Source: Escherichia coli (GTDB lineage Bacteria > Pseudomonadota > Gammaproteobacteria > Enterobacterales > Enterobacteriaceae). From it: a stretch of 64,000 nt of DNA. The stretch lies in the NCBI RefSeq assembly GCF_045037415.1, contig NZ_CP173438.1; one strand, written 5' to 3'. Position numbers: made by a program. How positions within the stretch are numbered: the stretch's first letter is position 1; every line of letters begins with the position of its first letter. Of the stretch, positions 45,601-48,600 are shown in pieces.

Positions 45601-48600
45601 GCATGCACAGAAATCCCCGTCGCAACAGCCTTTATCAGAAAACCATCTTTTTACCGGTCTATGGTGTTGCAGAGATATTTAATACTGACGCCGCGCATAC
45701 CATTTTTCTCCATCGCATTGTAAAGATGCGCACATACCGTCTTCATGGTTATCCCCAGCCGGTCTGCCAGAAAGGTAAACCCGTAGTCATGGAAAACAAC
45801 CCCGAAGACCACCACCATCTCTGTCCGGGTCAGTGGCCTTGCCGTATGTCCGAACAGCCACGCTCCACGGCGGATGGTTTGCCTGATATCTGTCAGGCAT
45901 CTCACAGAGGAAACAGGAATGACAAGAAACCGACGCCCACAGAACATAGAGTATGTAAGCCTTTCCAGATTACGGTCACAGAGAATCACATAACTGTCTT
46001 CGGGAAGTGACTGACGTTGCTTTCCGGCATTAAACAGCTCTCTGCCTGTCGTGACCTGATATCCGCTCAGTATACGCATCAGGCCATATTCCAGATATCT
46101 GTCCCGGGTCATAATAATAATCAGCATACTCTCTGCCCCTTGTATCCCGGATACCGGCTCCGTTTACCATTACCGGTATAACTGACTTATCATTCATAAC
46201 GGAAACTGTCTGCCGCATACATCAGCGCCCGCTCTTCCAGCTCTGACAGGCTCAGTTCTTTCAGTTCCCCTTCCCCTTCAGCAAGAAGATAACATTCAAA
46301 AACGGCTTCATCGTCGCATTCCAGACGCACCTGCGCCCTGTCAGCCCGACCGTTTACAATAAATAGCTGCACTGACCTTATGCGATAGTTCAGCATATAC
46401 ACTCTTCCTCTCAGATCTTCAGGAATACCCGGGAACAGTCAGTTATGCCATCGGGGAGAAAAACAGGCAGCGAATCATTACTTCATACCGAAAACTGCCT
46501 CCCCGGTGACTCAGGCCCGGGTTCAGAACTACCAGTTGACACCCACATTCCAGGAAACATAGCCGCCACTGAAAGTAGTACCTGCCTTTAAGCAGTCTGC
46601 TTGGCACTATACCCGCCCACAGCCGCTATGGCGTTAAATTTATCCTCACTGTACGGCTCCCGCTTCATTTCCTCGTGATTCTCATTAATCAGCCCTGCTG
46701 ACTGTTCAGACGCTCCGCATGCATCTCCAGCACCTCTCCCGGGGAAAGCAGCCCCCGGGTGTTACGGTTTATGGCCACCGTGTTCCGGATGATATTCTCC
46801 CTGTTCTCTGCAGCGACCGTATCTGTATGGTCACACGCCTTAAGCACTTATGCTGTAATCCGTCCACTGATGCCACTGTACACCTCATCCGTCAGCGGGT
46901 TCAGTTGCCTGATAGTGGCTGCTTCCGTATCCCATGCACCATCACTGATACCACCGGGACCCCGGATTTTATCCGGTCCCCGCGGACTGACAGGGTTTGT
47001 GACACCTGAGTCATATCTGATGTAAACTTCATTTTCACGGGTTGTACAGGAAAACTCCCCCTGTGCCATTGAATTCTGATGTGTGCCCTTCGCCACAACT
47101 CCCACCGTCACGGCACCAGTTGCATCTGACGCCGACCAACTGCTGAGAGCCATGCCGTTTCCGGCTTTGTCGACAACGCATGCTGCAGTTCCCAGCGATG
47201 CGAACTGGTCTGGCATGCATTCACGAACCAACAGCAGTGGTGCTACGTCCGGATGCAATTCGCATGAGCTCCAACCGCGGTTGTAAGTTCAGCAGCCCGG
47301 GCCTCTGCCCCCGGCACAGTCGCATAAGTATTCGATACCGTGCGACACCATTACCTTCAGGATACGCCACGGACCCGTCACCCTACGAAAACGCCGGAAC
47401 ACCGGCAATCAGCAAAGGCAGCAGTGATAAAAGACTGATATATTTCCTGTCATTATTTTTCATATTAATTTAACTCCTGATTAACCGGTTTTTATTGATA
47501 TGAGAAAGTAATAGTTGCAATAGCCTTCACACTTCCAGGTGTAGTTGCATCAGCAATTTTTATATAATTGGCTCTTAAATTGATATGTGGATTTACCTCT
47601 CCCCTGTAATCGGAGAAGTGCCATTGACTGCCATTTCCTTTCACAGGGGAGTCTTCACCATAGCTGATGGCAGTTACATCACTGTCTTTATATAGCCTGA
47701 TGCCAAATCCTTTTGCAGTGGATTCACTGCTTAAGGTCAATATATCTGTTCTGTTCACTGGCTGTGATGCATCTGTCAATGTAGCATAAACATCAATTCC
47801 ATCCGGGCATTGTAGGTGTATGTCAATTTTACCTCCCTGTATTTCTTTATACAAAGATGTGAACTGTGATTGATATACGGTATTTAATGGCACCACATAG
47901 TTTTTTTGCCCCATGGTACATGTCTGACTCTGTACCTGAATGCGCCCACCATTTAACATAACAGGTGCTGTCAGTCCTTTATTATTTAAACTTGTACGTT
48001 TTGCTTCCAACAAAATAGTACCAAGCTGCCTGGTGGGTATTGTTATATATCCATTGGGTAATCTTCCCGTTGCGACAAAAGCAACAAACAAACGAGCTCC
48101 GAAGCTTGCTGTCGCACCGTTATAAGTATTGGGGTTTGTATTGGCACCTACAGGGTCAATATATATACCTGAGCTATTTATGGGGACCAGAGGCGTTGCG
48201 GGCCAATAGCCCGCCATGCCAATAATAATACCCAGTCCGGATACACCAATATCATAGATATCAAAATCAGATGAATCACGGCTGTTTCCTTGATGGAAAG
48301 TATACGTAATACTTCCAATTTTAGGCAGTGCGGGTGTAAACTTTCCACGCATCAGAGCGATGGCACCGCCATTAAAAACATACTGGTTACTTGTTCCCGC
48401 CAGCTCTCCTATCACCCGGGGATAGGTATGGGCATCAGCAGGACCAATCACAACACCTGGCAATGTGGATGTATTAACCGCTATCTGCGAAGGCACATAA
48501 TCATCCGGACCCGCTACCGCCAGCTTAGGGAGTAAAATTAAAAACAATGGTATGAAAAAGATTCTTTTCATGTTTTTTCCTGATTAGGGTGCTGTATACA

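Follow-up and report, generated by a model that had tools for sequence, protein, structure and literature searches.

A decayed adhesin gene lies directly behind the fimbrial tip adhesin gene uclD in Escherichia coli. In the window, the 64,000-nt stretch of E. coli DNA analysed here, positions 47463-46523 on the minus strand are, judged by homology, the remains of a short trimeric autotransporter adhesin (TAA) gene of the YadA/Eib type, now a pseudogene. We consider it very probable that this TAA gene is long dead, that it came in as part of a block joined to uclD, that it decayed without selective constraint and that it yields no functional adhesin. A working adhesin cannot result: translation from the retained ribosome-binding site (RBS) and ATG halts after 26 codons, all later segments are interrupted or out of frame, and the deletions take away most of the stalk and the essential parts of the anchor. 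The remnant is probably inert, with no residual role in the strains that carry it. Nothing about it is out of the ordinary: it is old and fixed, comes from a known adhesin family and has been mis-annotated as a hypothetical protein. The value of the finding lies mainly in annotation and bookkeeping: it adds one more decayed adhesin to phylogroup-B2 islands, and once it is labelled a TAA pseudogene, one spurious protein family, WP_001218590.1, can be dropped from the hundreds of ExPEC genomes that carry it, the reference strains UTI89 and 536 among them. Known Ucl function is unaffected.

The dead gene is larger than first described. An earlier note had placed a degraded gene at 46848-47459, with a signal-peptide-bearing start at 47459 that ended after 26 codons and a 136-codon ORF following in another frame. 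Both ORFs are present, the second at 47258-46848 on the minus strand. The first has the length given, but its ATG is truly at 47463, 4 nt away. The interval lies inside the dead gene and falls about one-third short of the full 941 nt, as the remnant runs on to the ancestral stop at 46525-46523. The coordinates of all features are collected in Table 1.

Table 1. Features of the remnant and its surroundings in the window. Codon numbers are those of WP_042968617.1; L002 is an intact locus carrying the 400-aa allele.
Feature	Position	Strand	Remarks
uclD, fimbrial tip adhesin gene, intact	47492-48571	minus	Pfam Fimbrial domain 54.6 bits; stop TAA 47494-47492
Junction	47464-47491	minus	TAA homology begins ~47483 (ATCAGGAGTTAAATTAAT, RBS); 47484-47491 sole bases before uclD stop
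Whole pseudogene, YadA/Eib-type TAA	46523-47463	minus	941 nt left from ancestral 1,266 nt; colinear tblastn and nucleotide alignment
Start codon, putative signal peptide (26 codons) and first nonsense	47383-47463	minus	Sequence pattern
26-codon ORF	ATG 47463-47461 to TAG 47385-47383	minus	Opens MKNNDRKYISLLSLLPLLIAGVPAFS; AGGAG precedes ATG
Q27 CAG to TAG	47385-47383	minus	Codon 27, first nonsense; intact allele reads ...IAGAPAFA-QSDG
Head-repeat region	47212-47341	minus	Four small indels (-4, -3, +1, -5) and G83 nonsense
-4 nt	after 47341	minus	Codon 42
-3 nt	after 47284	minus	Codon 62
136-codon ORF	47258-46848	minus	TTG start at 47258, TAA stop 46850-46848; frame differs from 26-codon ORF
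+1 nt	47258	minus	Codon 71
G83 GGA to TGA	47223-47221	minus	Codon 83
-5 nt	after 47213	minus	Codon 86
E209 GAA to TAA	46850-46848	minus	Codon 209
-238 nt	after 46695 (site 46689-46695)	minus	Codons 261-340, 'saddle' and most of coiled-coil stalk; shifts frame
Wrecked membrane-anchor region	46523-46688	minus	-36, -40, E420 TAG, ancestral stop
-36 nt	after 46659	minus	Codons 352-363, AAAQSAALAGLF, start of anchor
-40 nt	after 46591	minus	Codons 387-400, frameshift
E420 GAG to TAG	46531-46529	minus	Codon 420
Ancestral stop TGA	46525-46523	minus	Alignment to intact alleles
Possible relic terminator of the dead gene	46457-46499	minus	Hairpin GGCAG...CUGCC then UGUUUUUCU; MFE fold; position conserved in L002; weak
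68-aa ORF, intact	46190-46396	minus	93.9% nt identity to L002, dN/dS 0.24; follows TAA gene in intact islands too
158-aa GerE/LuxR-type HTH protein gene, intact	45651-46127	minus	Part of transferred block; dN/dS 0.46

Identity of the parent gene

The decisive evidence for the identity of the gene comes from matching the DNA to annotated genomes and from tblastn with intact homologues as queries. A DNA search found matches in 395 of 5,426 complete E. coli genomes, most at 99% identity or higher and annotated as 'hypothetical protein' only. About 35 genomes match the 3' two-thirds of the remnant at ~90% identity; in these the gene is intact and encodes a 400-aa 'YadA-like family protein'. The frameshift-tolerant translated search that the earlier note had proposed does return a clear homologue, of the YadA-like/TAA kind. 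In tblastn, the 400-aa protein matched the 136-codon ORF and was colinear with the window over all three reverse frames, which makes the two ORFs parts of a single dead gene: residues 17-33 align to 47409-47359, residues 72-239 to 47198-46695 (E 2e-66, through an in-frame TAA), residues 321-363 to 46689-46597 and residues 378-400 to 46594-46526. This colinear map sets the limits of the dead gene at 47463 and 46523.

The closest intact allele is a 421-aa protein. A protein search with the frame-corrected reconstruction recovered a closer relative (E 5e-121, identical N-terminus MKNNDRKYISLLSL), whose full-length form is WP_042968617.1, found in STEC1590 and 7 other complete genomes. This allele shares its N-terminus and head type with the window copy, which is 87.7% identical to it over 935 aligned nt, from start codon to stop codon. 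It belongs to the same family as its 400-aa sisters WP_000700770.1 and WP_112917172.1, and all have the same downstream 68-aa ORF and LuxR-type gene. The 400-aa allele (loci L002 and L003) matches the head region poorly, at 64% nt identity with pS 0.82 and synonymous sites saturated. This had suggested a mosaic remnant, an idea dropped once the remnant was found to be evenly ~88% identical to the 421-aa allele.

Domain scores place the intact relatives among short TAAs. The YadA_anchor (PF03895) reaches 60.1-60.2 bits in the intact L002 and L008 proteins against a Pfam cut-off of 22.7, and YadA_head reaches 34.4 and 40.7 bits in intact alleles against 25, with YadA_stalk sub-threshold (20.2-20.8 bits against 28.4). 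The NCBIfam YadA model scores only 115 bits on these relatives, far under its cut-off of 750. The relatives are thus not YadA orthologues, and the parent is a YadA/Eib-type short TAA, not YadA itself. Pfam scans of each ORF fragment and of the frame-corrected 292-aa reconstruction matched no family, PF03895 included. The Fimbrial domain PF00419 was likewise absent from every fragment and from the reconstruction, whereas the adjacent adhesin scores 54.6 bits.

Among known proteins, the closest intact allele is most similar to EibD of E. coli, a likeness at the family level only. The parent allele aligns with EibD (PDB 2xqh, 2xzr; E 1.4e-43 for 2xqh, and 7.5e-12) over the head repeats, the neck (TTRxNEVYIGY ... 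DAATVGQLN), the saddle and the C-terminal coiled coil, and of the stalk segment aligned to that coiled coil little is left in the window copy. Eib proteins are immunoglobulin-binding trimeric autotransporters of E. coli, whose stalk binds IgG Fc and IgA. Their genes are prophage-borne, whereas the intact parent alleles lie in a chromosomal island. The order of parts in the parent resembles that of Yersinia YadA, the prototype TAA: signal peptide, head repeats, neck, stalk and four-strand anchor. An intact allele aligns with the YadA anchor structure 2lme at E 1.5e-17; in the window copy this anchor is gone.

The intact parent would have been a surface protein. Its product would carry a Sec signal peptide and be exported to the periplasm, where the trimer would insert in the outer membrane via its C-terminal YadA anchor and display a head-neck-coiled-coil stalk on the surface. 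TAAs are secreted via the type Vc route and do not need chaperone-usher machinery. Of the two options in the earlier note, a decayed secreted protein or an extra subunit gene, the first is right and the second wrong: the gene for a secreted, surface-anchored protein has decayed, but its TAA parent, lacking a Fimbrial domain, is no fimbrial subunit.

The junction with the ucl operon

The remnant sits immediately behind a complete fimbrial operon. A major subunit gene (51900-52448), chaperone, usher and 359-aa adhesin gene (47492-48571) make up the F17-like uclABCD operon, and the ATG of the remnant lies 28 nt past the adhesin stop. The Ucl operon has been described as four genes on a genomic island, in a paper that makes no mention of downstream genes, pseudogenes or autotransporters (PMC9236248). 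Homology to the intact TAA locus sets in ~8 nt past the uclD stop, which is ~20 nt ahead of the ATG. With only 47484-47491 between that homology and the stop, the native promoter region of the TAA gene has not been kept. GC content jumps at the same junction: the ucl operon has 42.1%, the remnant 53.6%.

Homology to the intact locus extends well beyond the dead gene, from ~47483 through the remnant, the 68-aa ORF and the LuxR-type gene to ~45497. The 68-aa ORF matched nothing in Pfam and NCBIfam scans. The 158-aa protein gives a sub-threshold Pfam GerE score (17.6 bits against 23.5), and PGAP names its homologues 'LuxR family transcriptional regulator'. The stretch that holds these two downstream genes (45640-46410) is identical in UTI89. 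The intact alleles lie in a large adhesin island, where genes for a giant repeat adhesin, an RTX protein and, in some cases, another TAA come before the three-gene block, which is followed by a second LuxR gene, mscS, a PAPS-reductase gene and an IbrB-like gene. The window copy differs from them in its 11 lesions, its 326 missing nt and its place directly after uclD. The shared block, the junction and the GC jump together indicate that the window holds a fragment of another adhesin island, attached to uclD but lacking the TAA promoter. The ucl operon is thus physically joined to a piece of a different, Eib/YadA-type adhesin island. IS and transposase fragments flank the region.

These observations suggest an order of events. 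The block of TAA gene, 68-aa gene and LuxR-type gene would have arrived from the different adhesin island and been joined directly to the uclD 3' end, leaving the TAA promoter region behind, after which the TAA gene would have decayed free of selective constraint.

The fusion could in principle have regulatory consequences. The dead remnant may act as an untranslated bridge, with transcripts from the ucl promoter running on into the 68-aa and LuxR-type genes and coupling fimbriae to a regulator; we regard this as unlikely. Speaking for it are the remnant's closeness to the uclD stop, its lack of a promoter region of its own and the integrity of the two downstream genes in most ucl-positive genomes. 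There is also no convincing terminator between uclD and the remnant, where the U-tract of the one hairpin, at 47407-47392, is poor and the fold is no stabler than shuffles (z-score 0.16). The ucl promoter is phase- and OxyR-controlled, and PapX is a regulator at the end of pap. LuxR-type regulators are encoded at the ends of adhesin loci, namely TosE and TosF of the tos locus, as cited in PMC4844996. AutA/AutR, described in the same paper, belong to a different locus, the UpaB cluster, and were set aside. If read-through occurs, Ucl-fimbriated cells would co-express a regulator inherited from another adhesin island.

Several observations weigh against read-through. A hairpin and U-run at 46499-46457 lie between the remnant and the 68-aa gene, although this fold is no stabler than shuffles (z 0.09) and was not picked up by the terminator scan. 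The LuxR gene is truncated or lost while uclABCD is kept in 536, ST80, ABU 83972 and KE50, and the published operon counts four genes. Islands that lack ucl also have the 68-aa/LuxR pair behind the TAA gene, and STEC1590 carries an ISEc20 element between the TAA gene and the pair, so the pair probably has its own promoter. The fuller version, in which the dead gene is a long untranslated linker in a PapX- or TosEF-like cross-talk circuit created by a gene-fusion accident, seems slightly less probable again. A promoter/terminator consensus scan returned nothing above shuffled expectation, and an Rfam scan of 45400-47700 gave a single sub-threshold match to a miRNA family, which we take as noise.

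Lesions and the reading frames they leave

The remnant is riddled with lesions. Relative to WP_042968617.1 it carries four nonsense substitutions, five frameshifting indels and two in-frame deletions, and the nonsense substitutions and frameshifts leave no uninterrupted frame from signal peptide to anchor. In all, 326 nt were lost and 1 gained, which accounts for its length (1266 - 326 + 1 = 941 nt). Two deletions, of 36 and 40 nt, and an early TAG all fall within the YadA anchor and destroy it. Imperfect direct repeats (AACAGYCAGCAR) flank the 238-nt deletion, which was probably repeat-mediated. Other adhesin pseudogenes in pathogenicity islands likewise show stops, frameshifts, a deletion bias and IS truncation in some lineages; the only particular point of this one is that it is fixed beside an actively studied adhesin operon.

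The two ORFs are accidental by-products of this decay. The 26-codon ORF encodes a putative Sec-type signal peptide: by eye, MKNNDRKYISLLSLLPLLIAGVPAFS has a basic N-region, a hydrophobic core and A-F-S, with small residues at -3 and -1, corresponding to AFA/Q in the intact allele. The 136-codon ORF keeps to the ancestral frame from the -5 indel up to the E209 TAA, covering head repeats, neck and the start of the stalk (codons ~88-208), and is preceded at its 5' end by ~15 out-of-frame codons. Its TTG start arises from the +1 insertion. The PGAP CDS WP_001218590.1, a 101-aa 'hypothetical protein' at 47153-46848, is the ATG-started part of the same ORF. ORF length is uninformative here, with mononucleotide shuffles of the window averaging 5.6 stop-free stretches of at least 136 codons over six frames; the 136-codon ORF counts as real because of its homology, not its length.

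It is very improbable that the 136-codon ORF, or its 101-aa PGAP version, encodes a functional truncated protein such as a free head/neck fragment. Most copies do keep the ORF open, and WP_001218590.1 is a PGAP call in many genomes. However, stretches as long arise by chance alone, the start codon is itself a product of the insertion, and the ORF matches no Pfam family. Additional indels disrupt its frame in HH45 (47061) and ST80 (~47093), and in ST80 an IS3 element removes part of it. A truncated protein without signal peptide, anchor or trimerising stalk could not reach the surface.

The lesion catalogue effectively refutes a phase-variable (contingency) or programmed-frameshift gene that could be re-activated, a reading to which we assign almost no probability. 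Surface adhesins are often phase-variable, and the dead gene retains its RBS and ATG. Slippage, however, could reverse neither the four nonsense substitutions nor the 36-, 40- and 238-nt deletions, the small indels lie outside homopolymer and short tandem tracts, and the lesions recur in all four of the other copies inspected. An extra fimbrial subunit gene of the ucl operon, to which the position right after the adhesin gene and the signal peptide might point, is refuted and just as improbable: the remnant resembles YadA-like autotransporters and not fimbrial subunits, has no Fimbrial domain, lies 11 GC points off the ucl operon and has no place in the four-gene operon as described (PMC9236248).

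Substitution pattern and distribution

Substitutions in the pseudogene point to relaxed selection. Against the closest intact allele, the remnant shows 68 nonsynonymous and 42 synonymous differences (dN/dS 0.49). For pairs of intact alleles, N:S is 6:22 and dN/dS 0.08-0.09 (Fisher p 0.0002 against 68:42). The remnant ratio is, however, not significantly different from that of two intact neighbour genes (N:S 28:21, p 0.6), so the test is supportive rather than decisive, and the signal of relaxed selection depends on the comparison with intact TAAs and on small counts. A crude path partition assigns ~0.10 substitutions per site to accumulation without constraint; this figure and the 7 indels suggest that the gene was inactivated long ago. 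In ucl-positive strains, SNP density is ~4-fold higher in the remnant (20/2447) than in uclD (6/3087; p 0.001), a comparison in which the lineages are non-independent.

The junction and its lesions are shared widely. Of 5,426 complete E. coli genomes, 359 have the uclD-remnant junction at 99% identity or higher, which covers practically all that possess uclD, and the stops and indels are common to all four other copies inspected (strains 4/0, 536, HH45 and ST80). This recurrence of the lesions in four strains, and of the junction in 359 genomes, excludes sequencing error. Lineage-specific changes show that decay is continuing: HH45 and ST80 each carry one extra 1-nt indel, and in ST80 the IS3 element removes everything beyond ~46900.

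A compositional joint between ucl and the adhesin remnant

The end of uclD, the fimbrial tip adhesin gene, and the adjoining remnant of a trimeric autotransporter adhesin (TAA) gene differ sharply in composition. GC content is 42.1% on the ucl side of their junction and 53.6% on the remnant side (GC profile over 46523-52448). The boundary marks where two islands of differing origin were joined, by recombination or by deletion.

Features of the window and of intact TAA loci
Feature	Position	Strand	Remark
tRNA-Phe	23646-23721	+	
Integrase-sized ORF	23919-25181	+	420 aa; after tRNA-Phe
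papC (pap usher), split	38789-41319	-	ORFs of 433 and 440 aa that overlap
Endonuclease/exonuclease/phosphatase-family gene and transposase, fragments	~45400-45640 and 44700-45350		downstream of LuxR gene
GerE/LuxR-like gene	45651-46127	-	158 aa
68-aa ORF	46190-46396	-	unannotated family
uclD-remnant compositional boundary	47484-47491		sharp; GC profile
Intact TAA-bearing islands	L002 1-6843; L003 1-6067; L008 1-10412		non-ExPEC E. coli

Intact islands and companion genes

Intact TAA genes lie within a large adhesin island that includes a giant GA-like/beta-strand-repeat protein, encoded by a 14 kb gene in strain HY220605, and an RTX protein of 622 aa whose similarity to PueAB polyurethane esterase scores 341 bits, under the cut-off. 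Some islands carry a second TAA of 560 aa. Two LuxR genes, one PAPS-reductase gene and one IbrB-like gene are also present. Because IbrAB regulate Eib expression, the IbrB-like gene suggests that an Eib-like regulon exists outside prophages.

The 68-aa ORF and the GerE/LuxR-like gene are always found with the TAA gene, whether it lies in an intact island or survives as the remnant. Both look constrained by their dN/dS ratios (0.24 and 0.46, respectively), but a number of lineages that carry ucl have truncated versions (536, ST80, ABU 83972 and KE50). By analogy, the two may correspond to adhesin-linked regulators such as TosE/TosF or PapX.

Decay towards pap and the apparent island site

The zone between ucl and pap is in general decay. 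In strain 4/0 the endonuclease/exonuclease/phosphatase-family and transposase fragments are annotated as partial pseudogenes, and a complete ISEc23 (IS66 family), absent from the window, separates them from papI. The papC break is a single 1-nt deletion at ~40166, seen by comparison with strain 4/0, where PapC is intact; the two genes are otherwise 99.96% identical across 2,511 nt. Unless the deletion is a sequencing error, this strain is unable to assemble P fimbriae.

The tRNA-Phe gene is followed by the integrase-sized ORF, and the pap/ucl-bearing island of this strain therefore appears to occupy a phe-tRNA site. For UTI89 and F11, the literature on Ucl assigns ucl to a leuX island (PMC9236248).
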